A stretch of 64,000 nucleotides of DNA, from contig OX597833.1 in NCBI GenBank assembly GCA_951406725.2, positions 11,346,001 to 11,410,000 on the forward strand, given 5' to 3'. The stretch comes from Octopus vulgaris. Its lineage: Eukaryota. Below, in pieces: positions 8,999 through 63,874 of the stretch. A program made the translations under genes and the position numbers. The number at the start of each line of letters is the position of its first letter. The stretch's first letter is position 1. Below the pieces are notes generated by a model. That model saw nothing but the letters and a program-made list of their open reading frames with translations, had not been told where the DNA came from and searched no databases.

Positions 8999-11900
8999 TT
9001 TCTTTATTAGCCACATGGGCCCAAACATAGAGGGGGACAATACAGCCTGATTGGGGTCAGACACTCAATGATTATATGACTTTTAAAATTTTACAAAATA
9101 TAATGAAATCGAATGAAATCGAATGAGATACAAAAAGGACGAAATACACACATGAGATGAAGCAGAGAGATGGCTTACGCTCCGACCCCACGAGCCCCAT
9201 TCTCCTACTGAAACATTTGTATGCAGACTTATGACATGTTCATGAGGAATCTTTCATTCCCAGCACCCTCGCAACATGCAACCATCTTTCTTTGAACATT
9301 TTCTTTGACAGGCATCTTCTTTCCAGCCTCACCTTCCTTTTAAGGAGGAAGATAAAATATCTCACCAACCCGAGACCGGAGATGAGGTTGCCTGTCGCCA
9401 AACCTTTCATTCGCGACTTCCATACCACCTCTTTCGCTATTGCTACTACTGCGAGAAAACATTGCTTATCTTCTTTCGTGAGGAAATCCGGCGGGTCAAT
9501 TTTTACAATTGACTCAGACGACAGCTGTACTCTTCCCGAACCTGACAGCAGATGTTCTGCATAAACCCACACTTCAGACACTCCCGAACACTGAACAATA
9601 GCGTGCAGGCCAGTTTCCCTATCCCGTCCGCATCTTGGACAGTCGGCAGTGGTGGTTCGACCGTGTCCTGCGAGCTTATCCCGAACGGGTAAGGCTCCTC
9701 GGTAACATTGCCAGGCCAGGGATTTTTGGAAATTATCCAAACACCCCGGCCCAAACGTCCTTCGGAACAGACTGTCTAACTAGTTATCTCCGAGACTTAG
9801 GGTTTCCTCTAGGGTATCGTCGTTCCCAGCCTCTACCAACCTGCTATAGAAAAATGTGGTGGTACCAAAACCGCTAGCATTACCCGAGCGATGGAACTGT
9901 AGGAGTGCTTTACGGCACTCCGTAAACCATGTACCCAACCTCGTTCTACGAAGGAACCAGCTTTCTTGTCCACTAAAACTTGTGAACCTGGGAAACATCC
10001 GTTTCGCGAGCGGAGACCACACCTGTTAACCATTCAGGAGTAGCCAGAGATACCTGAACCTCAGCGCATGTTTGCACATCAACAGCCAAGGCATCCCCAG
10101 TCCCCCATTCAACGGCTTTTGGCAGCAGATAGAACGCCTCACTAGAGGAGTGGTGCCCTTCCACAAAAAGCGGAAGATCTGCTTCTCCAGCTTGCTCAAC
10201 CACGAACCGGGACAGGGCACGACGGTTAGGCGGTAAATGATGACCGATGCGATAAACACATTGGCCACCTCCGCCCTCCCTTTCAAGGATAGCCACCGCC
10301 AAGACCAGGTCTTGACTATGCAGGTCACCTTGCTCAATACCTCTGCCCAGTTCTTTTCTACCTGGAGGTATGGTCTAAACCATACCCCTAGCAGCTTAAC
10401 CGGGCCCTCCGTCCAACGTCCCACGACGCTATCCAAAGGCATCGACTTGCCCCTCCAGGTGCCGAGTTGCAAGCCGACTGACTTTTCCCGGTTAATCTTT
10501 GCTCCTGCCACCGTCTCGTAAACCTTAATTGTTTCACGTACCCTCTGTAGGTGTTCCATCTTGGTTACAAGAATGGTGATGTCATCCGCATATGCTGAAA
10601 CCGACTCTCCAACAGCCGGCCCCCTCGGGATGCCGCTCAACTTTTGCAGTAACGGCTCTAGGGCCATCACATACAAAAGTGGCGAAAGCGGACATCCTTG
10701 GCGAACCGAGCGCTTCATAGAGAACGGCCTAGAAAGAAATCCGTTCACCCGAACGATCGAATCGATGTTGTCGTATAATTGGATTATCCACCTAAAGAAG
10801 CCAAGACCCAGCCCGAACTGTGCTAACACGGACACCAGGTATCGTTAGTCAACCCTACCGAATGCTTTTGACTGGTCTAAATGGACCAAAATCACTACCA
10901 GAATCACTACCAAACCCTTCTAAGGTATAGCGTATAAGATGGAGATTGTCCTGAATGCTTCTGCCGGGGACGGCACAGGTTTTTGCCTTGCCGATCAGAG
11001 TATTCGCGACCTGCCCCAATCTTTTTGCTAGTACCTTGGCCAAAATCTTCACCTCTGCGTTTAACAGAGTGATGGGCCTAAAGTTGTCTATCTTATCTCC
11101 CTTGTTTGGGTCCTTCCTGACCACAGTCACCACTCCCCTGCGTACAGATCTGGGAATCGACCCATTCTACTGCCAGTTATCGTAAACCCCGGCCAGAATT
11201 TGCCCATACAAGTCTGGCATACTTTTGTACATTTCATAAGGCAAACCACCAAGTCCCGGCGCCCTACCAGCTTTACAGTTCGTTATAGCCTCTCTCACCT
11301 CCTGAGGTGTTATCGGACCCTCACAGCACTCAGCATCCTGCCCCGAGAGACGCGGCAGCCCGGCAAGGAAGTCCGAAAGGTCCAACCTACCATCCGGTCC
11401 ATTGCCCCTCCCGAAAAGCTGTACAAAGTGCTCCTGAAAAGCCTGACACATCTCATCGGGTTCGTTCACAATCTCGCCTTGTAGATTCTCCACAGATCGA
11501 ATTGTAGAATCATTTCCACGTTGGGTTTCCATCACCCGAGCCCATCCAGCGGCATTGATCCCCTCACTCCCCATTGCACGAAGTCTAGCCCTGATAATGC
11601 ATCCCATGTGTTTGGCCTCGAGGTGCTGGTTTAATTCCAGTCTCTTAGCCTTCGCCTGAGCAGCACTACCAGTCAACCCTGCTTCCTCTAATTCCTTAAC
11701 CAGTTCTAGTTCCCTCTTACGCTCTCTAGCCACTAAACCTATGCTATATCTAACAGACTCAAATTTAATGGCTCTTTTGAGGGCGTACCACCATTTATTA
11801 TTAATGATGGTACCAGTTAAAGCCCTCTGTATCAGTAACTTAATCCGGCTTCTGTACTCTTCGTTCGCCAAATGGGACTTATTGAGTTTCTAGTAACCGG

Positions 11901-14084
11901 ATCCTCTACTCTGTAACTTATCTAGGTTCAGCTTACAAGTGACCAATTTATGATCACTGTAGCTGACCAAGTGGAACTGTGGACACTTAGCTATGGATCT
12001 ATCTGTTTCTCTAATTAGAATCCTATTTTAATAGGACTTAAAAGACCCGTCACCACTTAACCATGTCCACATTGGGGTGTTCGGGAATTCAAGTCTGTAT
12101 GGATCTACTAGCTGAAAGCGACTTAGTAGATCCCGGAAACCTGCATTAGGTATTCTATTTGGGTTCGAGCCAACATTATCCACGCGCGCATCTTGAATAA
12201 CATTAAAGTCCCCTAACAAAACTAATGGGTACGCCGTACCAAGAAACTTCTCTAGGTCTCGGAAATACTCAGACTGACCATTGTAGGGGGCGTAAATTGC
12301 CACCAGCCTGATTTTCTTACCGCAACTTAAAGTCAGGTCGAAGACGACCAGCCTACCCTCTGGGTCACAAAAAATTAACTTCTTCTCTGAAACCCGGTTT
12401 CTTTTTAGTAGGACCAACACCCCCACACCCACCCGCCGGTGGACTGGAGAAATAAATTTCTCGTATCCGTCCAGGAGTGGGAGCAGTCCTCTTGATCCCT
12501 TTAACCGGGTTTCAGTAGCAACAATGACATCCAAATTATGTGACATGACGTCGTTTAAGAAGCGGCCTCGCTTCCATCCCGTCGTCAGGCCACGCACATT
12601 TAAACATCCAACGTGAACTGCCATAAGTCTTACCTCAATTTCTTGTGTCTTCGCTAAAAGGCGGAGGTGGGTCCGCCTCTTTTTCTTTTTCTCGGGCTCG
12701 TGGAGTCGTTTTAATTAAGCCAACATCACTCCGATGGTCATTTGCTAGAACGTTGTAAGACGTTCTGTCTCCGTGGTAGACTTCGAAACCGTCTTTAACG
12801 TTTTTGCATCCAGTTCTTTTTAGTTTTTTAATTTGTATTTGGCTCATTAATCTCGAGTTTGAGGTTCGAACCGCCATATATAGAACTTCTTTCTCTCGTA
12901 TTTCTTTTGTTTTTGATTTTTTGGCTTTTTCTTGCCTTCTTTGAGTTTGCATTTTTGCCAATGATTTAACATTTCTCTTTAATTTCCTTTGGCTACCAGT
13001 TCTCTTCCATTCCGTCTCTTCTTTATTTCCGCTCTCATTTTCTTCTTCTGTGCTTTCTTCTTCTGTTTTCCCATTCTCTGTAGTTTCATCTTCCGAGTCT
13101 TCTTCAATGTTGTTCTCCTCTTTTTCTTTTTCTTCACCACTCTTGCATTCGGACCTAACATGGCCCTTCTTTCCACATTTAAAACATCTGGGTTTTCTAC
13201 ATTCCACCATGACTACTAACTTCGTACCCATTGTATCTATGACCTCTGGAATTTTTTCTAGGGTCATAGGCTCTGCTTGGATCAGCATTTTTATTGTTTG
13301 GCCAAGCCAGACTTTGTCTTCTGTTACTTCCGCAGAAAGCAGTGTGATTTCTTCCTCTAGGTCATACAGTACTGCCGCTACTAGCCATTCGGCGTCCGCC
13401 TCCGGTGGTACACAGCTTATCTTTATTCGGGAGGTTCTCCTCCCCATATAAAATGGCAACAGTACTACCTCATCCGTTCGCAGAGGCTCCACAGAATACT
13501 TTTGCGCCTGTTCCACTGTTGACATCCTCACTTCAACAGCTGCATATCTTTTTCCTCTGGCCAAATATGTGATGTTATTCCAAATTGGCCTTAAATATTT
13601 TTCTACACTTCTGTCATTGACATTTCTTTTCAACATTATATGTTTTGAAAATTACAGTCCTTTCGAGTGCATCTTTAATGATGCTATGAGTAGGGACCAC
13701 CTTTATTTCGGTCCCTTCTTTTGTTAACAGCTCTCGGTTTGCCTTCAAATTGGTTGTATCAATTTTCCTTGAGTTTCCTCCGGCGGCAGCCGCAAAGCTC
13801 CTTATTGGCTCTTCTAATATCCTTCTGCTCACTACAGAATCCTTACTGGTACTTGGCACTGGAGATACACTCTCCCTACGCGCGACAGTACCTTCCATTG
13901 TGTAAAAACACTAATAAAGAAAGTAAAACGTTTCCCCGCAAGGGGGAATTAAAACAAATTTTGCTTCAAAACAAGCAATAAATAGTCCCTTTTTTCAAAT
14001 TATAATAATCGAATTTAACTGTAACAGACACAAAATTTTAACATTGTACACTGCATAATAAGCGACATTATTAAGAAACCTGCG
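8999..14084 (-). mobile_element. Near full-length Tx1/L1-group LINE, degenerate (ORF1 with CCHC knuckle; ORF2 APE-RT-zf)
   Basis: ORF1 13898-12635 (CFKCGKKGHVRSEC). ORF2: CLNVRGL, LLGDFN, FRPITLLN, VRQGCPLSPLLY, SAYADD, CPRC...ETGLHAIVQC. Several stops/frameshifts; imperfect 11-bp TSD at 8988-8998 and 14085-14095. Confidence 0.9.
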
Positions 14085-36862: not shown

Positions 36863-39819
36863 TAATAATAATAATAATACTTGTGTACAGTGCTCAGGTG
36901 CACTACAACTCATCTAAAGTGTATATATAATCAGGTGTAGTTTCGGCGGATTTCGGAAAGCATGAGGGCCTTAAAAGATGCAGTGTCATGGCAGTCAACA
37001 ACTGACGCAGGCAGTTTATTCCATGCTTCAGCAAATCTGAGCGTGAAAAAATGTTTCCGAAAGTCATGGGAGCTGTATTGTTTTCTGACTTTGTAGGCAT
37101 GTCCACGTGTGTTAGACACATGGAGATCAAAAAGGTGTTCAGTGTTGTTGTTGGTGAGGTGGTTGATAACTTTGTGGGTGTTTACCAAGTCCGTCGCCAA
37201 ACGCCGGAGCTTCAGTGAATCCATGCCCAGGGAAACAAGGCGCTCAGAATATGGTAGGTGTCTGATGGAGGGTATGCGTTTGGTTGCACGTCTCTGGACA
37301 GATTCCAGGAGGTCAATGTTCTGTGCAAGATAGGGGTTCCAAACTGATGATGCGAATTCCAAGTGTGGTCGTACCATAGCTGTATACAGTTTTAAATAGA
37401 TGGCTGGAGAGCGGCTAACAAAAGACCTGCTGAGTGATGCCAAGACACCCTCGGCCTTCCTGACAATCTTAGAGATATGCTTTGACCAACGCAAATCACT
37501 GCTGACAGTGATGCCTAGGTCACGCTCACAAGAGGATTTCTTGATATCAGTGTTGTGGAGGGAGTATGTGAACGCAGGGTTTTTTCTCCCAAAATGCATG
37601 GTGGTACACTTGTCCACAGCCAGTTTCAGTTGCCAGTCTGTGATCCATTGCTGCATTGTGTCTAGGTCTGATTGCAGGAAAGAGTTGTAGACATCAGGAT
37701 CTGTCCTCTTGATTTCAAGGTACAGCTTGATGTCGTCTGCATATTTCAATACTGTGGCATTCTTTAAATTGGCATCTATGTCGTTAATGTATGCCACAAA
37801 CAAGAGGGGACCAAGGACAGATCCCTGTGGTACACCCGATGACATCTCATATGGTGTAGAGTGCTGTCCTAGAACTGTGACTACCTCCTTTCGGCTGAGG
37901 ATGAAGGATTTCAACCAGTTAAAAAGGTCATCCCCCACACCCATTGCAGAGAGTTTCACCATAAGCCTTTTGTGTGGCACAGAGTTGAAAGCCTTAGCAA
38001 AGTCAAGGTAGACAACATCCACCCATGAGCCACTGTCAGTAATCTGAGTAATGTCCTCAAGGAACTCGACAAGCTGGTCACTGCAGCTGGAGTTAGGGAC
38101 AAATCCATATTGTGAGGGTCGGATGAGACTGTGAGAGCTCCAGAAGTTCCAGAGTGTTTCTCTGACACACGATTCCATCAGTTTTGCAATACAGCTAGTG
38201 AGACTGACTGGGCGATAGTTGACAGGTGATGTGCGGTCGCCCTTTTTGAACAGAGGAATGACACTGGCAGTTTTCCACTGCTCCGGAGTAGCACCATTGT
38301 TGAGACAGTACTGGAAGAAAATAGAAAGCTGGTGTAAAAGGAAGTGCCTGCCACGTTTGAGAAGCAGGTATGTAACTCCATCGAGACCAGGGGAGGCATA
38401 GTTGCGCTTATTTTGAAGGTGACGTCGCAGCATTGCAGGTGTAAATTCCATAGTTGTTATGGAGTTTGCTGTTAGTGATGGTGAAGATGGTACATTTTGA
38501 CTTTCAACAGTGAATATGTTTGCATAGCACTCGGCAATGAGTTCTGCGCATTCCTTGGGGTCGTCAGTGATCTGGTTTGTGTGAGGGTTGCGAAGAGGGC
38601 CCACTGGAGAGTGAGGTCTCTGCTTTGAGTGCACATATTTCCAGAAAACCTTGCTGTCAGGATTGGCTGCTATGCACTGTTCAAATTCAAGCACTGCTTT
38701 TTTTGTCACTTGCTTGAGATGGTTGGAGGATTTATTCCGCTTCTTCCTGTTGGTGTCTGATTTATGCAACCTGTATTCCCGTTCAGCAGTCCGACGTTCC
38801 CTCCTGGCAAGTCGGACCGCTGAAGTTTCCCAAATTGCCCTTTTGGGGCGGTTCTTCTTTTTTTGTTTACGTGGCACTGATGCTGCACATGCTGCCCATA
38901 TTGAGTCCAGGATACTCTGGAGTATAGTATTCACATCTCCAGAGTTGTAGAATTCACGCCAGTTTGGGTGCTGTAGTTCAGTGTGGTACAGGTTCCAATC
39001 TGCTCTCTTCCAATCGAAGGAAGCAGATTGGAGATGGTTCAGGTTTTTGTTGCCCGCAAGAGCCAGATTGGCGATGATCATAGCATGATCAGAGTCACCT
39101 AGAGGTTCCTCCGTAGTGCAATTGATAACTGCTTCAGGAGTTGTGGTGAAGAGCAGGTCCAAGGTGTTGTCGCCTCTTGTTGGAGAGGTGACTACTTGTG
39201 ACCAGTTTGAGTCCAGCACAAGCTCAACAAAATCGTTTGCACTCTGTGGCCAATGGAAGGTCTCCCAATCGATCTCAGGATGATTGAAATCGCCTGCAAT
39301 AAACACATAAGTGGCTGTTTTCCTGGCAGCAGCTCGGAGGACATTGCAAAGCTGTGTGTCCCGATGGTAACTTGGGGGACGATAAACAACGCCAAGCAGG
39401 AGTGTTGACATGGTCATATGCACGTCACAGAAAAAAACTTCTTCTTGTGATTCGTTCAAATCGGCACAAGGAATTACCAAAAAATTTGAACGAACGTAGA
39501 CCATCACACCACCACCACGGCGGTTAGTGCGGTCCTTACGGAAGAGGTTGTACCCCGTAATGTTGAAAACCCCATCACAGAGTAAGGAATGCGCCCATGT
39601 TTCCGTGACAGTGATGAAGTCAGGGTCAACACTTCTGACGTAGGCGTTGAACAAATGTATTTTGTTGCATAAACTGCGAGCATTTAAGGACAACAATTTG
39701 TACCCTGCTCGCAGTTTATGATGGTGTGTAGAGGATGGCAGGTTGTTCTGGCTTAGTTTCCCTGAGTTGCTGTAGTCTTTTTAGTTATTGTGGGTAGAGA
39801 GCACTCAGACCAGCTGGTA
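36863..39819 (-). mobile_element. CR1-group LINE, young; 5' part runs into the assembly gap
   Basis: Intact ORF2, short 3' UTR with GTGC-ACCTGA-GCAC hairpin and (ATT)n tail; absent from the paralogous site at ~4436. Confidence 0.9.
36931..39696 (-). CDS. LINE ORF2: APE endonuclease + reverse transcriptase, 921 aa uninterrupted
   Basis: LNARSL, VTETW, AGDFN, SDH, NYRPVSLTS, YLDFAKAF, GVPQGSVLGPLLF, YADD, ERDLG, VRPHLEF, ESVQRRATK. Confidence 0.95.
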   Translation of the reverse strand: MLSLNARSLCNKIHLFNAYVRSVDPDFITVTETWAHSLLCDGVFNITGYNLFRKDRTNRRGGGVMVYVRSNFLVIPCADLNESQEEVFFCDVHMTMSTLLLGVVYRPPSYHRDTQLCNVLRAAARKTATYVFIAGDFNHPEIDWETFHWPQSANDFVELVLDSNWSQVVTSPTRGDNTLDLLFTTTPEAVINCTTEEPLGDSDHAMIIANLALAGNKNLNHLQSASFDWKRADWNLYHTELQHPNWREFYNSGDVNTILQSILDSIWAACAASVPRKQKKKNRPKRAIWETSAVRLARRERRTAEREYRLHKSDTNRKKRNKSSNHLKQVTKKAVLEFEQCIAANPDSKVFWKYVHSKQRPHSPVGPLRNPHTNQITDDPKECAELIAECYANIFTVESQNVPSSPSLTANSITTMEFTPAMLRRHLQNKRNYASPGLDGVTYLLLKRGRHFLLHQLSIFFQYCLNNGATPEQWKTASVIPLFKKGDRTSPVNYRPVSLTSCIAKLMESCVRETLWNFWSSHSLIRPSQYGFVPNSSCSDQLVEFLEDITQITDSGSWVDVVYLDFAKAFNSVPHKRLMVKLSAMGVGDDLFNWLKSFILSRKEVVTVLGQHSTPYEMSSGVPQGSVLGPLLFVAYINDIDANLKNATVLKYADDIKLYLEIKRTDPDVYNSFLQSDLDTMQQWITDWQLKLAVDKCTTMHFGRKNPAFTYSLHNTDIKKSSCERDLGITVSSDLRWSKHISKIVRKAEGVLASLSRSFVSRSPAIYLKLYTAMVRPHLEFASSVWNPYLAQNIDLLESVQRRATKRIPSIRHLPYSERLVSLGMDSLKLRRLATDLVNTHKVINHLTNNNTEHLFDLHVSNTRGHAYKVRKQYSSHDFRKHFFTLRFAEAWNKLPASVVDCHDTASFKALMLSEIRRNYT

Positions 39820-39919
39820 NNNNNNNNNNNNNNNNNNNNNNNNNNNNNNNNNNNNNNNNNNNNNNNNNNNNNNNNNNNNNNNNNNNNNNNNNNNNNNNNN
39901 NNNNNNNNNNNNNNNNNNN
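39820..39919. other. Assembly gap (100 N)
   Basis: Run of N. Confidence 1.
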
Positions 39920-42900
39920 CAACCAACCAACAAACCAGTCATGACAAATCGATCCACCACCAACCCAAACCAGCCAACCAGGTGACCCAGGTGACCCACC
40001 GACCAACCAGCCAGCCAGCAACCAACCAACAAACCAGTCATGACAAATCGATCCACCACCAACCGACAAACCAGCCAACCAGGTGACCCACCGACCAACC
40101 AGCCAACCAGCAACCAACCGACAAACCAGCCAACCAGGTGACCCACCGACCAACCAGCCAGCCAGCAACCAACCAACAAACCAGTCATGACCAATCGATC
40201 CACCACCAACCGACAAACCAGCAAACCAGGTGACCCACCGACCAACCAGCCAACCAGCAACCAACCGACAAACCAGCCAACTTGCAGACCCACCGACCAA
40301 CCAGCCAGCCAGCCACCAACCGACAAACCGGCCAACCTGGTGACCCACCGACCAACCAGCCAACCAGCAACCAACCAACAAACCAGTCATGACCAACCGA
40401 TCCACTACCAACCGACAAACCAGCCAACCAGGTGTCCCACCGACCAACCAGCCAGCCAGCAACCAGCCAACAAACCAGTCATGACAAATCGATCCACCAC
40501 CAACCGAAAAACCAGCCAACCTGGTGACCCTCCGACCAACCAGCCAGCCAGCAACCAACCGACAAACCAGCCAACCAGGCGACCCACCGACCAACCAGCC
40601 AGCCAGCAACCAACCGACAAAGCAGCAAACCATGTGACCCACCGACCAACCAGCCAACCAGCAACCAACCGACAAACCAGCCAACTAGGTGACCCACCGA
40701 CCAACCAGCCAACCAGCAACCAACCAACAAAGCAGCCAACCAGGTGACCCACCGACCAACCAGCCAGCCAGCAACCAACCGACAAAGCAGCCAACCAGGT
40801 GACCCACCGACCAACCAGCCAACCAGCAACCAACCAACAAACCAGTCATGACCAACCGATCCACTACCAACCGACAAACCAACCAACCAGCCAGCCAGCA
40901 ACCAGCCAACAAACCAGTCATGACAAATCGATCCACCACCAACCGACAAACCAGCCAACCAGGTGACCCACCGACCAACCAGCCAACCAGCAACCAACCG
41001 ACAAACCAGCCAACCAGGTGACCCACCGACCAACCAGCCAACCAGCAACCAACAAACAAACCAGTCATGACCAATCGATCCACTACCAACCGACAAACCA
41101 GCCAACCAGGTGACCCACCGACCAACCAGGTGACCCACCGACCAACCAGCCAACCAGCAACCAACCAACAAACCAGTCATGACCAATCGATCCACTACCA
41201 ACCGACAAACCAGCCAACCAGGTGACCCACCGACCAACCAGCCAACCAGCAACCAACCAACAAACCAGTCATGACAAATCGATCCACCACCAACCGACAA
41301 ACCAGCTAACCAGGTGTCCCACCTACCAACCAGCCAACCAGCAACCAACCGACAAACCAGCCAACCAGGTGACCCACCGACCAACCAGCCAGCCAGCCAG
41401 CAACCAACCAACAAACCAGTCATGACCAATCGATCCACCACCAACCGACAAACCAGCAAACCAAGTGAGCCACCGACCAACTAGCCAACCAGCAACCAAC
41501 CAACAAACCAGTCATGACAAATCGATCCACCACCAACCGACAAAGCAGCCAACCAGGTGACCCACCGACCAACCAGCCAACCAGCAACCAACCGACAAAC
41601 CAGCCAACCAGGTGACCCACAGACCAACCAGCCAGCCAGCAACCAACCGACAATGCAGCCAACGAGGTGACCCACCGACCAACCAGCCAACCAGAAACCA
41701 ACAAACAAACCAGTCATGACCAATCGATCCACTACCAAACGAAAAACCAGCCAACCAGGTGACCCACCGACCAACCAGCCAACCAGCAACCAACCAACAA
41801 ACCAGCCAACCAGGTGACCCACCGACCAACCAGCCAGCCAGCAACCAACCAACAAACCAGTCATGACCAATCGATCCACCACCAACCGACAAACCAGCAA
41901 ACCAGGTGACCCACCGACCAACCAGCCAGCCAGCAACCAACCGACAAAGCAGCCAACCAGGTGACCCACCGACCAACCAGCCAACCAGCAACCAACCGAC
42001 AAACCAGCCAACCTGCAGACCCACCGACCAACCAGCCAACCAGCAACCAACCAACAAACCAGTCATGACCAATCGATCCACTACCAACCGAAAAACCAGC
42101 CAACCAGGTGACCCACCGACCAACCAGCCAGCCAGCAACCAACCGACAAACCAGCCAACTAGGTGACCCACCGACCAACCAGCCAGCCAGCAACCAACCG
42201 ACAAACCAGCCAACCTGGTGACCCACCGACCAACCAGCCAACCAGCAACCAACCAACAAACCAGCCAACCTGGTGACCCACAGACCAACCAGCCAACCAG
42301 CAACCAACCGACAAACCAGCCAACTAGGTGACCCACCGACCAACCAGCCAGCAAGCAACCAACCGACAAACCAGCCAACCTGGTGACCCACCAACCAGCC
42401 AACCAACCAACAACCCAGTCATGAACAAGTCATGACCAACCGATCCACTACCAACCGACAAACCAGCCAACCAGGTGTCCCACCGACCAACCAGCCAGCC
42501 AGCAACCAGCCAACAAACCAGTCATGACAAATCGATCCACAACCAACCGACAAACCAGCCAACCTGGTGACCCTCCGACCAACCAGCCAGCCATCAACCA
42601 ACCGACAAACCAGCCAACCAGGTGACCCACCGACCAACCAGCCAGCCAGCAACCAACCGACAAAGCAGCCAACCATGTGACCCACCGACCAACCAGCCAA
42701 CCAGCAACCAACCGACAAACCAGCCAACTAGGTGACCCACCGACCAACCAGCCAGCCAGCAACCAACCGACAAACCAGCCAACCAGGTGACCCACCGACC
42801 AACCAGCCATCCAGGAACCAACCGACAAACCAGCAAACCTGGTGACCCACCGACCAACCAGCCAACCAGCAACCAACCAACAAACCAGTCATGACCAACC

Positions 42901-45900
42901 GATCCACTACCAACCGACAAACCAACCAACCAGCCAGTCAGCAACCAGCCAACAAACCAGTCATGAAAAATCGATCCACTACCAACCGACAAACCAGCCA
43001 GCCAGGTGACCCACCGACCAACCAGCCAACCAGCAACCAACCGACAAAACAGCCAACCAGGTGACCCACCGACCAACCAGCCAACCAGCAACCAACCAAC
43101 AAACCAGTCATGACCAATCGATCCACTACCAACCGACAAACCAGCCAACCATGTGACCCACCGACCAACCAGCCAGCCAGCAACCAACCGACAAACCAGT
43201 CATGACCATCGATCCACCACCAACCGACAAACCAGCCAACCAGGTGACCCACCGACCAACCAGCCAGCCAGCAACCAAACCAACAAACCAGTCATGACCA
43301 ATCGATCCACCACCAACCGACAAACCAGCCAACCAGGTGACCCACCGACCAACCAGCCAACCAGCCAACCAGCAACCAACCGACAAACCAGCCAACCAGG
43401 TGACCCACCGACCAACCAGCCAACCAGACCCACCGACCAACCAGCCAACCAGCAACCAACCAACAAACCAGTCATGACCAATCGATCCACTACCAACCGA
43501 CAAACCAGCCAACCAGGTGACCCACCGACCAACCAGCCAACCAGCAACCAACCAACAAACCAGTCATGACAAATCGATCCACCACCAACCGACAAACCAG
43601 CTAACCAGGTGTCCCACCGACCAACCAGCCAACCAGCAACCAACCGACAAACCAGCCAACCAGGTGACCCACCGACCAACCAGCCAGCCAGCCAGCAACC
43701 AACCAACAAACCAGTCATGACCAATCGATCCACCACCAACCGACAAACCAGCAAACCAAGTGAGCCACCGACCAACCAGCCAACCAGCAACCAACCAACA
43801 AACCAGTCATGACAAATCGATCCACCACCAACCGACAAACCAGCCAACCAGGTGACCCACCGACCAACCAGCCAACCAGGAACCAACCGACAAACCAGCC
43901 AACCAGGTGACCCACCGACCAACCAGCCAGCCAGCAACCAACCGACAATGCAGCCAACGAGGTGACCCACCGACCAACCAGCCAACCAGCAACCAACTAA
44001 CAAACCAGTCAAGACCAATCGATCCACTACCAAACGAAAAACCAGCCAGCCAGGTGACCCACCGACCAACCAGCCAACCAGCAACCAACCAACAAACCAG
44101 CCAACCAGGTGACCCACCGACCAACCAGCCAGCCAGCAACCAACCGACAAACCAGCCAACCAGGTGACCCACCGACCAACCAGCCAACCAGCAACCAACC
44201 GACAAACCAGCCAACCTGGTGACCCACCGACCAACCAGCCAACCAGCAACCAACCAACAAACCAGTCATGACCAACCGATCCACTACCAACCGATAAACC
44301 AACCAACCAGCCAGCCAGCAACCAGCCAACAAGCCAGTCATGACAAATCGATCCACCACCAACCGACAAACCAGCCAACCAGGTGACCCACCGACCAACC
44401 AGCCAACCAGCAACCAACCAACAAACCAGTCATGACCAATCGATCCACTACCAACCGACAAACCAGCCAACCAGGTGACCCACCGACCAACCAGCCAGCC
44501 AGCAACCAACCAACAAAACAGTCATGACAAATCGATCCACCACCAACCGACAAACCAGATAACCAGGTGACCCACCGACCAACCAGCCAGCCAGCAACCA
44601 ACCAACAAACCAGTCATGACAAATCGATCCACCACCAACCGAAAAACCAGCCAACCAGGTGACCCACCCACCAAATAGCCAACCAGCAACCAACCGACAA
44701 ACCAGCCAACCAGGTGACCCACCGACCAACCAGCCAGTCAGCAACCAACCAACAAACCAGTCATGACCAATTGATCCACCACCAACCGACAAACCAGCCA
44801 ACCTGGTGACCCATCGACCAACCAGCCAACCAGCAACCAACCAACAAACCAGTCATGACCAATCGATCCACTACCAACCGACAAACCAGCCAACCAGGTG
44901 ACCCACCAACCAACCAGCCAGCCAGCAACCAACCAACAAACCAGTCATGACAAATCGTTCCACCACCAACCGACAAACCAGCTAACCAGGTGACCCACCG
45001 ACCAACCAGCCAACCAGCAACCAACCAACAAACCAGTCATGACAAATCGATCCACCACCAACAAAACAAACCAGCCAACCAGGTGACCCACCGACCAACC
45101 AGCCAACCAGCAACCAACCGACAAACCAGCCAACCAGGTGACCCACCGACCAACCAGCCAGCCAGCAACCAACCGACAAAGCAGCCAACCAGGTGACCCA
45201 CCGACCAACCAGCCAGCCAGCAACCAACCGACAAACCAGCCAACCAGGTGACACACCGACAAACCAGCCAACCAGCAACCAACCGACAAACCAGCCAACC
45301 TGGTGTCCCACCGACCAACCAGCCAGCCAGCAACAAGCCAACAAACCAGTCATGACAACTCGATCCACCACCAACCGACAAACCAGCCAACCAGGTGACC
45401 CACCGAACAACCAGCCAACCAGCAACCAACCGACAAACCAGCCAACCAGGTGACCCACCGACCAACCAGCCAACCAGCAACCAACCAACAAACCAGTCAT
45501 GAACAATCGATCCACTACCAACCGACAAACCAGCCAACCAGGTGACCCACCGACCAACCAGCCAGCCCGCAACCAACCGACAAACCAGTCATGAACAATC
45601 GATCCACTACCAACCGACAAACCAGCCAACAAGGAACCCACCGACCAATCAGCCAACCAGCAACCAACCAACAAACCAGTCATGACAAATCGATCCACCA
45701 CCAACCGACAAACCAGCCAACCAGTTGACCCACCGACCAACCAGCCAACCAGCAACCAACCAACAAACCAGTCATGAACAATCGATCCACTACCAACCGA
45801 CAAACCAGCCAACCAGGTGACCCACCGACCAACCAGCCAGCCAGCAACCAACCAACAAACCAGTCATGACAAATCGATCCACCACCAACCGACAAACCAG

Positions 45901-48900
45901 CCAACCAGGTGACCCACCGACCAACCAGCCAGCCAGCAACCAACCAACAAACCAGTCATGAACAATCGATCCACTACCAACCGACAAACCAGCCAACCAG
46001 GTGACCCACCGACCAACCAGCCAACCAGCAACCAACCGACAAACCAGCCAACCAGGTGACCCACCGACCAACCAGCCAGCACGCAACCAACCGACAAACC
46101 AGCCAACCTGGTGACCCACCGACCAACCAGCCAGCCAGCAACCAACCAACAAACCAGTCATGACCAATCGATCCACCACTAACTGACAAACCAGCCAACC
46201 AGGTGTCCCACCGACCAACCAGCCAGCCAGCAACCAACCGACAACCAGCCAACCTGGTGACCCACCGACCAACCAGCCAACCAGCATCAACCAACAAACC
46301 ATTCATGACCAATCGATCCACCACCAACCGATAAACCAGCCAACCAGGTGACCCACCGACCAACCAGCCAGCCAGCAACCAACCGACAAACCAGCCAACC
46401 AGGTGACCCACCGAGCAACCAGCCAGCCAGCAACCAACCGACAAACCAGTCATGACCAATCGATCCACCACCAACTGACAAACCAGCCAACCAGGTGTCC
46501 CACCGACCAACCAGCCAGCCAGCAACCAACCGACAAACCAGCCAACCTGGTGACCCACCGACCAACCAGCCAACCAGCATCAACCAACAAACCATTCATG
46601 ACCAATCGATCCACCACCAACCGACAAACCAGCCAACCAGGTGACCCACCGACAAACCAGCCAGCCAGCAACCAACCGACAAACCAGCCAACCAGGTGAC
46701 CCACCGACCAACCATCCAGCCAGCAACCAACCGACAAACCAGCCAACCTGGTGACCCACCGACCAACCAGCCTACCAGCATCAACCAACAAACCATTCAT
46801 GACCAATCGATCCACCGCCAACCGACAAACCAGCCAACCAGGTGACCCACCGACCAACCAGCCAGCCAGCAACCAACCGACAAACCAGCCAACCAGGTGA
46901 CCCACCGACCAACCAGCCAACCAGCAACCAACCGACAAACCAGCCAACCTGGTGACCCACCGACCAACCAGCCAACCAGCAACCAACCAACAAACCAGAC
47001 ATGACCAATCGATCCACCACCAACCGACAAACCAGCCAACCTGGTGACCCACCGACCAACCAGCCAACCAGCAACCAACCGACAAACCAGTCATGAACAA
47101 TCGATCCACTACCAACCGACAAACCAGCCAACCAGGTGACCCACCGACCAATCAGCCAACCAGCAACCAACCAACAAACCAGTCATGACAAATCGATCCA
47201 CCACCAACCGACAAACCAGCCAACCAGTTGACCCACCGACCAACCAGCCAACCAGCAACCAACCAACAAACCAGTCATGAACAATCGATCCACTACCAAC
47301 CGACAAACCAGCCAACCAGGTGACCCACCGACCAACCAGCCAGCCAGCAACCAACAAACAAACCAGTCATGACAAATCGATCCACCACCAACCGACAAAC
47401 CAGCCAACCAGGTGACCCACTGACCAACCAGCCAGCCAGCAACCAACCAACAAACCAGTCATGAATAATCGATCCACTACCAACCGACAAACCAGCCAAC
47501 CAGGTGACCCACTGACCAACCAGCCAGCCAGCAACCAACCGACAAACCAGCCAACCAGGTGACCCACCGACCAACCAGCCAGCCAGCAACCAACAAACAA
47601 ACCAGTCATGACAAATCGATCCACCACCAACCGACAAACCAGCCAACCAGGTGACCCACCGACCAACCAGCCAGCCAGCAACCAACAAACAAACCAGTCA
47701 TGACAAATCGATCCACCACCAACCGACAAACCAGCCAACCAGGTGACCCACTGCACCAACCAGCCAGCCAGCAACCAACCAACAAACCAGTCATGAATAA
47801 TCGATCCACTACCAACCGACAAACCAGCCAACCAGGTGACCCACTGACTAACCAGCCAGCCAGCAACCAACCGACAAACCAGCCAACCAGGTGACCCACC
47901 GACCAACCAGCCAGCCAGCAACCAACAAACAAACCAGTCATGACAAATCGATCCACCACCAACCGACAAACCAGCCAACCAGGTGACCCACTGACCAACC
48001 AGCCAGCCAGCAACCAACCAACAAACCAGTCATGACCAATCGATCCACCACCAACCGACAAACCAGCCAACCTGGTGACCCACCGACCAACCAGCCAACC
48101 AGCAACCAACCAACAAACCAGTCATGACCAATCGATCCACCACCAACCGACAAACCAGCCAACCAGGTGACCCACCGACCAACCAGCCAACCAGCAACCA
48201 ACCGACAAACCAGCCAACCTGGTGACCCACCGACCAACCAGCCAACCAGCAACCAACCAACAAACCAGTCATCATGACCAATCGATCCACCACCAACCGA
48301 CAAACCAGCCAACCCACCGACCAACCAGCCAACCAGCAACCAACCGACAAACCAGCCAACCAGGTGACCCACCGACCAACCAGCCAGCCAACCAACCGAC
48401 AAACCAACAACCAGCCAACCAGACCCACCGACCAACCAGCCAACCAGCAACCAACCGACAAACCAGCTAACCTGGTGACCCACCGACCAACCAGCCAACC
48501 AGCAACCAACCAACAAACCAGAGATGACCAATCGATCCACCACCAACCGACAAACCAGCCAACCTGGTGACCCACCGACGAACGAGCCAGCCCGCAACCA
48601 ACCGACAAACCAGTCATGAACAATCGATCCACTACCAACCGACAAACCAGCCAACCAGGTGACCCACCGACCAATCAGCCAACCAGCAACCAACCAACAA
48701 ACCAGTCATGACAAATCGATCCACCACCAACCGACAAACCAGCCAACCAGTTGACCCACCGACCAACCAGCCAACCAGCAACCAACCAACAAACCAGTCA
48801 TGAACAATCGATCCACTACCAACCGACAAACCAGCCAACCAGGTGACCCACCGACCAACCAGCCAGCCAGCAACCAACAAACAAACCAGTCATGACAAAT

Positions 48901-50100
48901 CGATCCACCACCAACCGACAAACCAGCCAACCAGGTGACCCACCGACCAACCAGCCAGCCAGCAAACAACCGACAAACCAGTCATGAATAACCGATCAAC
49001 TACCAACCGACAAACCAGCCTACCAGGTGACCCACCGACCAACCAGCCAGCCAGCAACCAACCAACAAACCAGCCAACCAGGTGACCCACCGACCAACCA
49101 GCCAGCCAGCAACCAACCAAACAAACCAGTCATGACAAATCGATCCACCACCAACCGACAAACCAGCCAACCAGGTGACCCACCGACCAACCAGCCAGCC
49201 AGCAACCAACAAACAAACCAGTCATGACAAATCGATCCACCACCAACCGACAAACCAGCCAACCAGGTGACCCACCGACCAACCAGCCAGCCAGCAACCA
49301 ACCAACAAACCAGTCATGAATAATCGATCCACTACCAACCGACAAACCAGCCAACCAGGTGACCCACTGACCAAGCAGCCAGCCAGCAACCAACCGACAA
49401 ACCAGCCAACCAGGTGACCCACCGACCAACCAGCCAGCCAGCAACCAACAAACAAACCAGTCATGACAAATCGATCCACCACCAACCGACAAACCAGCCA
49501 ACCTGGTGACCCACCGACCAACCAGCCAGCCAGCAACCAACCGACAAACCAGCCAACCCAGGTGACCCACTGACCAACCAGCCAGCCAGCAACCAACCAA
49601 CAAACCAGTCATGACCAATCGATCCACCACCAACCGACAAACCAGCCAACCTGGTGACCCACCGACCAACCAGCCAACCAGCAACCAACCAACAAACCAG
49701 TCATAAACAACCGATCCACGTCCAACCAACAGACCAGCCAACCAGGCGACCCACCGACCAACCAGCCAGCCAGCAACCAACTGACAAACCAGCCAACCTG
49801 GTGACCCACCGACCAACCAGCCAACCAGCAACCAACCAACAAACCAGTCATGACCAATCGATCCACCACCAACCGAAAAACCAGCCAACCAGGTGACCCA
49901 CCGACCAACCAGCCAGCCAGCAACCAACCGACAAACCAGCCAACCAGGTGACCCACCGACCAACCAGCCAACCAGCAACCAACCAACAAACCAGACATGA
50001 CCAATCGATCCACCACCAACCGACAAACCAGCCAACCTGGTGACCCACCGACCAACCAGCCAGCCAGCAACCAACCGACAAAGCAGCCAACCAGCCAACA
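39920..50100. repeat. ~10-kb complex satellite of interspersed 55-bp and 92-bp units
   Basis: 55-mer GGTGACCCACCGACCAACCAGCCAACCAGCAACCAACCGACAAACCAGCCAACCA, with or without a 37-bp insert containing GTCATGACCAATCGATCCAC. Confidence 0.97.
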
Positions 50101-50949
50101 ATTGTTTTGGCTGTTATTTTTATATAAACGTCACTGAATAAAAGATTGGTTGGTCATGACTGGATGTCTTCGATCATAGACCTGTTCGATTAGGCTTTCA
50201 TGAGGGCTGGACAACAACCACATTAACAACAACAATAACAAAAACAATAGCAACAACAACAACAACAACAACTACAACAACGTCAACAACAACCAACACA
50301 ACAAAATACATTAAATACGACCGATTCTCTCTAGAATTAGGAACCCGGCGTTGTTTGCGTGAGTCTGGCCGAGGCATTTTGAAATAGCAGCAACATGTCG
50401 GGAAGAAGAAGGGTTTCCACTTAGATTTTAATACAGGATCTTTCGTAAACCTCAATCTCTGGTGCTGGGGTCGGGGGTGGGGTGGGGGACTTTGATATTG
50501 CTGACATGTCTTCTCTTTTACCTTCGGCAATACAATGAAGGCTTTTGTTGTTGATGTTGGTGGTGGTGGTGTTGTTGTTTGAGATAGTAGTGGTGGTGGT
50601 GGTGGCAATGGTTGTAGTTGTGGTGGTGGTCATGGTAGTGGTGGTAGTAGTGCTGGTGCTGGTAATGGTTGTGGTGGCGGTCACGGTTTTGCTGGTGGTG
50701 GCTGTGTTTACCTCCGACGTCTGCCCAATCCAAACAATTCTTTTTTTGCTGTCATTTCTCCGTTCTTTGTTTTTTCAATTTTTTTATTCTTTTTATTTTC
50801 AGACATATTGCCTCTGAGATATAACGAAGATTCGATTCATATCGAAGTCAATTTTAATATTGGATTTACAAGTGCCCAAATCAGTGGTTCCCAACAGTAG
50901 TTAATTTGACAGTTGGGGGTCCATGTAAGATTGCTTTAAAATCTATCTA

Positions 50950-59353: not shown

Positions 59354-59411
<58 letters not shown>

Positions 59412-59415
59412 TATG

Positions 59416-59482
<67 letters not shown>

Positions 59483-62400
59483 TGTTACGACACACACAGG
59501 GTTGGACCTCCGCGATTCGAACTGTTACGGAAATCCTCACACGCACGGGCCCGTTCGTTGCAGCGATTAAGCTACGGAAACTCGTCGGAGAAGGGAGAGA
59601 GGAAAGACACAACCGCAGCAAGGCAACAGAGACACAGAGAGGCAACCGAGAGAGACACCAAAAGAGGCAAGGCAACAGAGGCAACACTGGCTTACATTTA
59701 ACAACTAGTTTATACGACAATCAATGGTTACAACATCAAAGCATTTAAGGCAAACATTTAAAGAAGGACATGCACGTGACTACTCAATATAACAGTCCGG
59801 TAACGACACAACAAGTCATATATATTAGCAACAGATCAAAGCATTTAAACATGCAAGTAACAATATAACAGTATTTCATAGACAAACAAGTTCAGATCAA
59901 ATAATGTTCACGATACATCACAGTCCAATCAGAACAATTCGATACATTATACAATGTTCGCATCACAACAATTCACGTTACAATTCAAAGTTCATTATCG
60001 TCTACATCAGAGTCCTTCTTTTTCTCTCTTCTTTCTCTTCTTTTCTTTTACATCGTAACACGTATCAATACAAGTCAAATACCTTAATTCCTAATTAGAA
60101 TCGCCAGTGTCCCATATTGCACTCATCTCTCTCTCAATACCGCCAACTCCAGCTTGCCAAACCGCTTGCTCCTAAGACTGCACCGCTTGCTCCCAAGATT
60201 CCACCTACTTGCTCTGACTTCTAGAATCCGACTGTACCCTTCGACGACCGAATGCCAACTGCCAAAACCTCACCTCCTTGTCCTGACTTCCACTGTCCTC
60301 ATCTCCCTCTGTCTCTACCGCTCATACCCTCTCATGACAGCTCTGCCATACTCTCTGCCTGTCCTTCTTTGCCCCCTCTTCCTCTCTCACTGCTAATATC
60401 CTCTCTATCTGCTCTTAGATTCCTTACTCTATCTCTCTCACCACTTTCCTTCCTCTTCTTCAAGGGGTGTTTAGAACGACCTCTAATCGACCGCACAAGG
60501 CCAGAAAGGTCCATCCAAAACTCATTAATCTCCCAGTAAACAAAGGACTGTCTCTTTTCTTCCAGACGTGCCGGCGCCACCATTCCAAAGTGGGTCACCA
60601 AGAAATGCACTAGCTAAACTCATAACACTACCCCCTACCTAAGATTTGTCGATCCGACAAAAGCATAACAAACCCGCAGCTCCGAGGGTGAGCTCCAGCA
60701 GACGTTCTAGGAACTGGAGGTCCCCTTGCGTGTTTTCTCCTCCGGAGGTCTCACCTCCTACGGCCACCACTTCAGCACCAGCCACAGGTTGGCACCTTAC
60801 CTCTGCGGCTTGGGCAACACCTCCATCAAGGCCGCCAGGCTTCCTACTAGCCGCCAACAATAGTCGCACCGTCCGAGGAAGTTCCTCAACTCCCTCATAC
60901 AAGCAGGGTCCGGCCAATCCTTCACAGTGGCCACCTTCCTCAGGGCTCTATAACCCACGTAGCACCTCGCTGTGCCATCCCCATTCTGCACAACTAAGGC
61001 CGACGACCAGGGACCGTTGCGCCCTTTCGCTGTTCTCTGTCGTCGATATCTCCTCTTGCGCTGCTGTACTGGGACCATTCTGCGGCCTCGCTGCCTCCTC
61101 AAGCGACGACCGCCTTGGCCGACGAAGCACTCCGCCATGTTCGTGCGACCAACCTCTAACAACCTTCGCGACAAACGTCTTGCGCTCCTCACCAACGGTT
61201 GCTTCTTCCGCAACTGCATCAGCGGACCACGATCTCCTTTAACTGCATCACTGCACCGGCAGAACTGACCCCGCCGCTGGTTCACCGTCCGGCGCAGTTC
61301 CACGATTTGCCCTCTGCAAATCGCCTGCGCAGCCTTCAATAAATCGGCTGACCCAACCAGCGCTCTGTCAGCCTCTGCCTCCACCAGGGTCCAGCCAACC
61401 CTCAATTGAGCTCTCACTCCGCACTGCTTGTCGGGCTCCACCGGCCCCACGCAACCATCGAATACAGAGCCCACCCGAGTGCCAACCAAGCACCAACGAC
61501 TCCTTGCGGAACGCTTCCTCAACTGCATCAGTGGGCCACCATCTCCTTCAACTGCGTTGCCGTATCGGCAGAACTGGCCCCACCACTGGTTCGCCATCTG
61601 GCACGACTCCTCGATTTGCCTTCTATAAATCGCCTGTGTCACTTCCAAAAGATCGGCCGACCCAGCCAGCGCCCTGCCAGCTTCTGCTTCTACTAGGGTC
61701 CACCCGACCCTCAATTGAGCTTTTACTATGCACTGCCTGTCGTGCTCCACCGGCCCCAAGCAGCCATCAACCACAAAGCTCACACAACGCTGAAGCAGTC
61801 TTCCTGGTCTTGGTGAACCCACCACCGTTCGTAGCCGTCTCGCCTCGTCAACGGGCTTGGTCCTTTTCCTCACCAGCTTCCGCACCGTAGGCCTCACAAC
61901 ACGCACGCTCGGCCGCCAGTCCATCCACGCCTGTGGCCTCTCCACAGTGGGAACCATACAGTCCTCCTGGGCCCCAAGAGACAGGGGCCCAGACACCAAA
62001 GGACCCGCACACGGCACAACACCTGCCGCGACCATCACACACAGAGCCGGAACCTCGGATTCAGCGACATCCGCCCCAGACCTCACCAGCTCTTCGTCCT
62101 GAGCTCCGAGAGACAGGGGTCGAGACGCCAAGGGCTCCAGACACGGAACAACAGCATCAGCCATAACACCTTCAACAGGCCTTTTGGTTTCCTTAACATC
62201 GGGCTCAGCAACATACGCTTTAGTTTCCGCAAACACTACCGGTCCAGCATCACAAATTTCGGCGACCAACCCAGGTTCCGAAACACTTCCTTCACTATCT
62301 GTTTCTCTCGATGCCTCGTTCGACGGTCAATTTCTGCCCACAGGACCGTCGCTATCCCCGGTCCAACACCGATCCTTCAAAGCTGACCCATCCGCAACAT

Positions 62401-63820
62401 CAAACTCCTGCTGATCTGCACACCGGCCCTGTCGCCTCTCGTCCATTGTCTCCATGAACGCGTCTGTCTGCGCCATCTGGCCCCTCAACATCTCCACAAT
62501 CAGGGCAAGCGAAATCTCCCCGTCTCCGGTCCGACAACCAGACAAATCCATAGCGAAAAAAACCGATCGAAACGCAGCAATCAGGACAATCCCACTTCTG
62601 ACACCAGTTGTTACGACACACGGGTGGGACCTCCTCCGATTCGAACTGTTACGGAAATCCTCATACACACAGGCCCGTTCGATGCAGCGATCAAGCTACG
62701 GAAACTCGTCGGAGAGAGGAGAGAGGAGAGATACAACCGCAGCAAGGCAACAGAGACACAGAGAGGCAACCGAGAGAGACACCAAAAGAGGCAAGGCAAC
62801 AGAGGCAACACTGGCTTACATTTAACAACTAGTTTATACGACAATCAATGGTTACAACATCAAAGCATTTAAGGCAAACATTTAAAGGAGGACATGCACG
62901 TGACTACTCAATATAACAGTCCGGTAACGACACAACAAGTCATATATATCAGCAACAGATCAAAGCATTTAAACATGCAAGTAACAATATAACAGTATTT
63001 CATAGACAAACAAGTTCAGATCAAATAATGTTCACGATACATCACAGTCCAATCAGAACACTTCGATACATTATACAATGTTCGCATCACAACAATTCAC
63101 GTTACAATTCAAAGTTCATTATCGTCTACATCAGAGTCCTTCTTTTTCTCTCTTCTTTCTCTTCTTTTCTTTTACATCGTAACACGTATCAATACAAGTC
63201 AAATACCTTAATTCCTAATTAGAATCGCCAGTGTCCCATATTGCACTCATCTCTCTCTCAATACCGCCAACTCCAGCTTGCCAAACCGCTTGCTCCTAAG
63301 ACTGCACCGCTTGCTCCCAAGATTCCACCTACTCGCTCTGACTTCCAGAATCCGACTGTACCCTTCGACGACCGACTGCCAACTGCCAAAACCTCACCTC
63401 CTTGTCCTGACTTCCACTGTCCTCATCTCCCTCTGTCTCTACCCCTCATACCCTCTCATGACAGCTCTGCCATACTCTCTGCCTGTCCTTCCTTGCCCCC
63501 TCATCCTCTCTCACTGCTAATATCCTCTCTATCTGCTCTTAGATTCCTTACTCTATCTCTCTCACCACTTTCCTTCCTCTTCTTCAAGGGGTGTTTAGAA
63601 CGACCTCTAATCGACCGCACAAGTCCAGAAAGGTCCATCCAAAACTCATTAATCTCCCAGTAAACAAAGGACTGTCTCTTTTCTTCCAGACGTGCCGGCG
63701 CCACCATTCCAAAGTGGGTCACCAAGAAATGCACTAGCTAAACTCACTGCATCGAACGGTGTGTGAGGATTTCCGTAACAGTTCGATTCGCGGAGGTCCC
63801 ACCCTGTGTGTGTCATAACA
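59483..63820 (-). mobile_element. Non-autonomous Gypsy-type LTR retrotransposon in (TA)n, with an extra inverted terminus
   Basis: LTRs 59483-60627 and 62609-63820 (TGTTA...TAACA), PPT AGGTAGGGGGTAG next to 60627, PBS, RT remnants at the end of ORF 60797-62269, ATAT on both flanks. Confidence 0.92.
62589..62606 (-). promoter_or_regulatory. Primer binding site complementary to the 3' end of tRNA-Leu
   Basis: TGGTGTCAGAAGTGGGAT, 2 nt downstream of the 5' LTR. Confidence 0.85.

Positions 63821-63874
<54 letters not shown>

Follow-up and report, generated by a model that had tools for sequence, protein, structure and literature searches.

The window analysed here is a stretch of 64,000 nucleotides from Octopus vulgaris (contig OX597833.1, positions 11,346,001 to 11,410,000). 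At 59483-63820 it contains a non-autonomous element of the Ty3/Gypsy type, 4,338 bp in length and on the minus strand, whose 5' long terminal repeat (LTR) carries an additional inverted copy of the far end of the element. The feature is real, in an odd copy of an element of ordinary class. For its origin we propose that a sporadic template switch occurred in reverse transcription, that the insertion is old and that the LTR bodies later underwent gene conversion, an explanation to which we give a probability of about one half. If the event was sporadic, the element clearly preserves a slip of reverse transcription, which is of modest interest, and it cautions that ages read from LTR-LTR identity may be too low by about tenfold. 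If the event recurs, LTR ends would be built in an undescribed way, and long terminal inverted repeats (TIRs) could arise from LTRs by a simple route.

The inverted extension and the structure of the element

Self-comparison identifies 59483-60622 and 62609-63746 as colinear LTRs with 97.8% identity over 1,140 bp. The segment outside the second of them, 63747-63820, corresponds to 59483-59563 in reverse complement, apart from five substitutions and one 7-bp deletion. Its local alignment to the U5 end scores 108, compared with a maximum of 30 among 10,000 shuffles. On the element strand the 3' LTR opens with TGTTA-TGAG right behind the polypurine tract and the 5' LTR opens with TGTTA, 69 nucleotides and then TGAG. 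Both outer ends of the element show TG...CA. The initial annotation, made from the letters of the window, had described LTRs that are colinear apart from 63747-63820 and a 5' LTR consisting of TGTTA, a 69-bp inverted U5 copy and a normal U3, with no such insert in the 3' LTR, and this description holds. The same is true for the insertion inside (TA)n, since ATAT is found at both junctions within TA arrays. This is what a 4-6-bp target-site duplication would leave, although any site in a TA array would look so.

59358..59482, no strand: left (TA)n array, with the apparent ATAT target-site duplication at 59479-59482
59483..60627, minus strand: 3' LTR of 1,145 bp, with the short (canonical) U3 start at 60627 and the outer U5 end at 59483
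59483..59608, minus strand: divergent U5-terminal block, with 13 difference events against 62609-62732
59563..59574, plus strand: imperfect inverted match of 12 bp to bases 6-17 of U3 (60611-60622), exactly in the register of the extension junction
60628..60640, minus strand: polypurine tract of 13 nt directly before the 3' LTR, read from the sequence
60800..62551, minus strand: degenerate pol-derived frame, interrupted by a stop at 62327-62329
62589..62606, minus strand: primer-binding site of 18 nt, 2 nt from the 5' LTR
62609..63746, minus strand: stretch of the 5' LTR that is colinear with the 3' LTR and contains the inner U5 end, from the self-comparison
63747..63820, minus strand: 74-bp extension (net +69 bp), an inverted U5-end copy whose first 8 nt are identical to the U3 start
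63821..63865, no strand: right (TA)n array, with the apparent ATAT duplication at 63821-63824

Direct TG...CA LTRs, a primer site (presumably of the tRNA-Leu type), a polypurine tract and internal pol-derived sequence place the element with Gypsy. Gypsy LTRs are of equal extent at insertion; here the 5' LTR exceeds the other by 69 bp, which is an anomaly of this copy. The internal region of 1,981 bp consists of a single 584-codon frame with one stop. This frame had no significant Pfam match, and no Pfam reverse transcriptase (RT) hit was obtained in the element. Searching 1.84 billion representatives with phmmer gave 50 matches to the frame, among them polyproteins with RT, RNase H and integrase. 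A Pfam scan of 29 of these matches found RVT_1 in 18, and the closest 11 were without any Pfam domain. Ten matches were looked up, four of which are Octopus gene models and three polyproteins (lobster, pseudoscorpion and abalone); the closest full Pol matches are XP_042213279.1 (Homarus americanus) and UYV84785.1 (Cordylochernes scorpioides). In the alignment to the lobster protein the N-terminus of the RT is fused straight to the thumb and the catalytic core is gone, which, as judged from sequence, points to a non-autonomous Gypsy derivative. The relic also lacks RNase H and integrase, and its pre-RT region is duplicated (61205-61474 and 61514-61783).

TRIMs, miniature retrotransposons with terminal repeats (Helenus and Ajax), following the definitions in PMC10886601, are non-coding, shorter than 1 kb and have small-RNA-derived LTRs. 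The octopus element measures 4.3 kb, and Rfam and tRNA searches of it returned no match each. Compared with non-autonomous Ty3/Gypsy elements of metazoans (similar to TRIMs or to large retrotransposon derivatives, LARDs), it shares the TG...CA LTRs, primer site, polypurine tract, an apparent 4-bp duplication and the Gypsy relic of RT N-terminus and thumb. It differs from them in that its 5' LTR is extended by 69 bp through the inverted U5 copy, its U5 ends are ten times more divergent than the LTR bodies, and it retains a pol-derived frame of 1.75 kb without catalytic domains.

Some further observations concern the frames of the element. The duplicated pre-RT module is 270 bp long with 79% identity between its copies. 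A gene model of O. sinensis (P0002) shows 82% identity to the pol-derived frame over 266 residues, several O. vulgaris gene models match its start, and many gene models of unrelated appearance (P0001, P0005, P0008-P0012) have its 5' part spliced in. A frame without any catalytic domain may have been kept for a reason, or it may be a mere reflection of recent spread. At 63652-63816 (minus strand) the 69-bp insert is in frame with an ATG at the U3 start, so that a frame of 32 codons grows to 55, probably by chance. When the frame spanning the extension junction was used as a probe for other extended copies, no protein relatives were found among 1 and 10 candidates. The three ends and the short start, when folded, gave no structure above shuffles (z 0.14 to 1.39).

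Divergence of the LTR ends and homology at the junction

The differences between the two LTRs are unevenly distributed. Thirteen events fall within the first 130 bp from the U5 end, the last of them at base 126, compared with 10 in the remaining 1,010 bp (p=1.3e-7 by Fisher's test; p=1e-5 by permutation over any window). The greater divergence near the termini, which had been suspected before, is real and occupies a block of 126 bp. This block reaches 46 bp past the inverted segment and is therefore not set by it. The LTR bodies differ by 1.0%, and the outer U5 end, the inner U5 end and the extension are mutually about 8-10% apart. In the 80 aligned columns each of the three has three private events. 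What the initial annotation described as variants shared with both is a star pattern and gives no evidence of a mosaic. Between the extension and each of its own ends we count five events in 66 bp, against 0.65 expected from the rate in the bodies (p=6e-4 each), so that a recent copy of either end is unlikely. With 5 vs 5 events, the two outer arms resemble each other no more closely than each resembles the inner end.

A second terminus-like motif is present about 41 bp inside each U5 end (59524-59530 and 62648-62654) and also in the extension. The possibility that the last 41 bp of U5 form a tandem copy of the next 46 bp was discarded, as the similarity is not significant (p 0.04-0.33).

The borders of the insert lie in sequences that resemble each other in inverted orientation. 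Seven of the first eight bases of the U3 start match the inverted U5 end, and the 12-mer at the junction with U3 is the best inverted match among about 1,130 positions of the outer LTR (shuffle p=0.013). At both borders the extension carries the U3-type base, and under a double switch this needs no extra mutation.

From these features we infer a template switch of the following kind. The reverse transcriptase of a partner would have copied the non-autonomous element in trans. Primed at the polypurine tract, the nascent plus strand would have synthesised the first ~8 U3 bases, slipped onto a sense-strand U5 end, to which 7 of 8 bases are complementary, read some 66 bases backwards and regained U3 via the imperfect 12-bp homology. 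As plus-strand strong-stop DNA builds the 5' LTR alone, only that LTR would be longer. The extended end would have remained a normal TG...CA end for the integrase, and integration in the TA array would have produced the 4-bp ATAT duplication. The insertion would be old, with each end copy about 4% away from the common ancestor, and a later LTR-LTR gene conversion would have evened out about 1 kb of the bodies and spared the last 126 bp. Alternatively, the minus strand may have folded back onto the displaced U5 end, which would give the same sequence but a single-stranded end for the integrase. The initial annotation had offered an unorthodox strand transfer as one option, and it is in our view the best explanation, as the insert borders on inverted U3/U5 homology and ends in a normal TG...CA terminus. 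In its favour, the extension is flush with this terminus with ATAT on both sides, and the 3/3/3 star fits because the three copies would have been identical at insertion. In HIV-1, 26 of 88 proviruses had structurally asymmetric LTRs arising in reverse transcription (PMC9278108), and conversion regions, mostly 100-1,000 bp long, have been predicted in 25% of plant LTR pairs (PMC7251063).

A foreign source would also account for an extension that is equally distant from both of its own ends. The extension could be the real U5 end of a second, inverted copy, which lay head to head with the element in the TA array or came from another cDNA that the same complex integrated, and the rest of which was lost by deletion or end joining at the 12-bp homology. 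The microhomology at the junction agrees with such a loss, and inverted LTR pairs are unstable. Still, we regard this as quite unlikely, because the divergence between inner and outer U5 would be left unexplained, CpG decay would be needed at both border bases, and TA arrays are so plentiful (784 bases, 1.2% of the window) that the chance of two copies in one is low.

Other copies and control loci

Shared words were used to compare the element with 24 sequencing runs, and for 4 of the 24 runs contigs were placed on 60590-63830. These contigs (n=1128, 938, 621 and 666, from four organisms) fill 30 of 30 bins, and the family is therefore multi-copy. Of the joints in these contigs 15 out of 24 were covered, of the joint inserts 12 out of 30, of the substitutions 40 out of 351 and of the loose ends 24 out of 539. 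Three further joints can be deduced and are all located beyond 63491, so that joints at the extension may be among those not covered and their absence carries no weight. Part of the words of this copy is present in 20 of the 24 runs, with less than half in every run (best 0.32) and no RNA run in the list, suggesting that this exact copy is probably absent from all of them. As no run contains half of the words of the copy and a 100-N gap lies elsewhere in the window (39820-39919), one might suspect an artefact of assembly or polishing at a repeat beside a microsatellite. Such an artefact is very unlikely, since the extension has substitutions of its own and a 7-bp deletion seen in neither end, and since it lies 4.2 kb from its mate with no shared exact word long enough for a graph misjoin.

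Among the joints listed, one contig of the run X2 (depth 93.5) joins 63732 to 63813 via 12 letters that resemble the 11-letter short end. Its placement at 63813 rather than at 60620 implies that TA follows, so that it apparently represents an unextended 5' end or a solo LTR in a TA array. Contig depth in the four runs was 690, 289, 67 and 56 in the bin of the extension and 3345, 4247, 367 and 438 in the next bin. Nothing is inferred from this dip, as the other edge bin is low as well (1015, 568, 165 and 163), ordinary U5 ends can map to the extension bin, and depth does not equal copy number.

The short form bears on the possibility that the extension was the original state. There might be a long-LTR subfamily with terminal inverted repeats of about 90 bp, in which case the 3' LTR of this copy has lost 69 bp between two TGA repeats, or the copy is a chimera with long 5' and short 3' LTR made by intermolecular strand transfer. 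The homology runs 12 bp beyond the junction like a decayed longer inverted repeat, the divergence of the extension would be explained without great age, and the two LTRs do differ at both ends. An intermolecular second transfer has been proposed for the asymmetry in HIV-1 (PMC9278108), and template switching between parents for complex elements of plants (PMC1950507). However, the apparent existence of a diverged short-form variant suggests that short is an established state of the family, and subfamilies that are 10% apart in 126 bp yet 1% over 1 kb would demand further recombination. We consider this origin unlikely.

Another idea is that the inverted U5 copy is rebuilt or handed on in each cycle throughout the family, or in its main subfamily, the three terminal segments being separate lineages and the body being homogenised per round. 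Ends that are about 8-10% apart between bodies that differ by 1.0% would be expected from this, homology is built in at both borders, and the high copy number leaves room for selection. Against it stand the apparent short end next to TA in X2 and the intact primer site, at which tRNA priming should replace the outer U5 with the inner one in every cycle (PMC10886601). More generally, following the standard cycle summarised in that paper, the extension is not inherited, being located upstream of the transcript, so that each extended copy would have to form it anew; the earlier statement that canonical reverse transcription would not pass it on is upheld. Moreover, no such ends were found in 70 distant loci (below). 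Recurrence of this kind is accordingly improbable.

The control set comprised 70 metagenome loci with the same primer motif, 17 of which have Gypsy Pol beside it. BLAST detected an inverted LTR-end copy upstream in none of the 70, at least 1,000 bp of upstream sequence being available in 36, and recovered the window itself at E=1e-18. In the three loci where both LTR starts are visible these are symmetric (3/3), and one of the 70 has a TA tract of at least five units. As the control families are distant, they only show that elements with this type of primer do not generally have the architecture. An ungapped control with 30 bases of the inverted end was too blunt (window 20, others up to 18) and was set aside. 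A 23-base LTR motif had no match in metagenome contigs, and the primer motif gave three loci in viral contigs, all unrelated and uninformative. Some of the control loci are peculiar in themselves. In L060 (217-1050, oriented to the primer site) integrase-like sequence lies directly behind the primer site, an order that we take to be Gmr1-like; in L027 the primer site follows a complete pol as in tandem elements; and in L034 and L040 the match of the downstream LTR to the end of the upstream one is split into two pieces, separated by about 600 bp, which suggests an insertion in one LTR.

Weighing of the template switch, target site and related systems

Several points speak against a sporadic switch with later conversion. 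Two events are required, the switch and a conversion that spanned about 1,010 bp and extended as far as the U3 edge. If the insertion had the age of the LTR bodies (1.0%), five differences in 66 bp per end would be unlikely (p=6e-4), so that the switch fails without conversion or a foreign template, and foreign templates would give the same divergence pattern as an old insertion with conversion. The junction homology is modest, its p=0.013 being based on a window length picked post hoc, and the match is not the top one as a 14-mer nor in the inner LTR. Support for the short end consists of one contig in one of four runs, a variant with three differences there and an inferred TA flank, and the 70 control loci belong to other families and other hosts. 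Finally, the asymmetries in HIV-1 considered here (PMC9278108) are deletions and no inverted additions.

The extension had also been linked to TA-microsatellite targeting, for which we find no support. Duplications of 4 bp with ATAT or TATA are the norm in the Drosophila 412, Idefix and gypsy clades (PMC3276498), plant elements are frequently found in microsatellites (PMC12477314), and the X2 contig is apparently unextended next to TA. Of 872 ATAT sites in the window, 326 lie within TA arrays, and a plain preference for ATAT would therefore often hit an array. The extension thus needs no special link to the target.

Nor is there support for the suggested DNA-transposon-like mobilisation via TIRs. 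Ginger2 elements have TGTNR termini, TIRs of about 50-180 bp (45-297 in the table), 4-bp duplications and RTATAY targets (PMC2836005), and the octopus element likewise ends in TGTTA within a TA array, its imperfect arms of 74-81 bp falling within the 40-300 bp considered for Ginger. On the other hand, Ginger has an integrase-like transposase and neither LTRs nor RT, and in the octopus element LTRs and an RT relic are present and no transposase or integrase was found. Its primer site and polypurine tract are intact, and the outer arms are not specially alike, as shown above. That it is now mobile as a DNA transposon through its inverted ends by a Ginger2-type transposase is exceedingly unlikely.

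Among published systems, Ginger2/Tdd elements share with the octopus element the TGTNR ends, long TIRs, apparent 4-bp duplication and AT-rich target, but Ginger codes for an integrase-like transposase, and LTRs, a primer site and an RT relic are absent from it (PMC2836005). The Drosophila 412, Idefix and gypsy clades share the apparent 4-bp ATAT duplication in alternating TA; they belong to another lineage and host, and the sections of that study considered here report no asymmetric ends (PMC3276498). HIV-1 proviruses share structurally unequal LTRs, ascribed to misalignment and template switching, but these are deletions, mostly of the 3' LTR, without an inverted far-end copy in the sections considered (PMC9278108).

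In DIRS-type retroelements, too, one terminus has an additional complementary copy, but these elements use a tyrosine recombinase with an internal complementary region (for DIRS/Ngaro as a whole, such a region or split repeats) and have no tRNA primer site or duplication. Self-BLAST of the octopus element shows no internal complementary region beyond the inner LTR end, and no recombinase hit was obtained in it. Our literature search, with Repbase and subscription journals outside its scope, turned up no publication describing LTR elements whose far end is copied in inverted orientation, of which a prior description is possible, and none on TA-array-specific ends of animal Gypsy elements. A repeat study of O. 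vulgaris lists nine recently active Ty3-like families and in the parts covered contains nothing on element ends (PMC13282606); the parts covered of a survey of mollusc LTR elements hold nothing relevant (PMC6238403).

The step by which LTRs gave rise to long terminal inverted repeats has been called unclear in the Ginger paper (PMC2836005). An octopus Gypsy lineage might routinely add an inverted U5 copy at the 5' end by a homology-guided strand switch, or transmit three independent terminal segments in a non-canonical way, and would then provide LTR elements with long TIRs as a living intermediate towards Ginger-type DNA transposons. We consider this doubtful.

In the rest of the window, frames of non-LTR retrotransposons were found at 36931-39780, 10026-13651 and 5172-8475, all on the minus strand. 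Going by their motifs, they probably comprise a frame of 949 codons for endonuclease and RT, a broken element of the L1/Tx1 kind and pieces that resemble Penelope or R2. Around 39785-50113 there is a strand-skewed, degenerate tandem repeat of 10 kb (GC skew about -0.5, AT skew about +0.75), within which the 100-N gap mentioned above is located.

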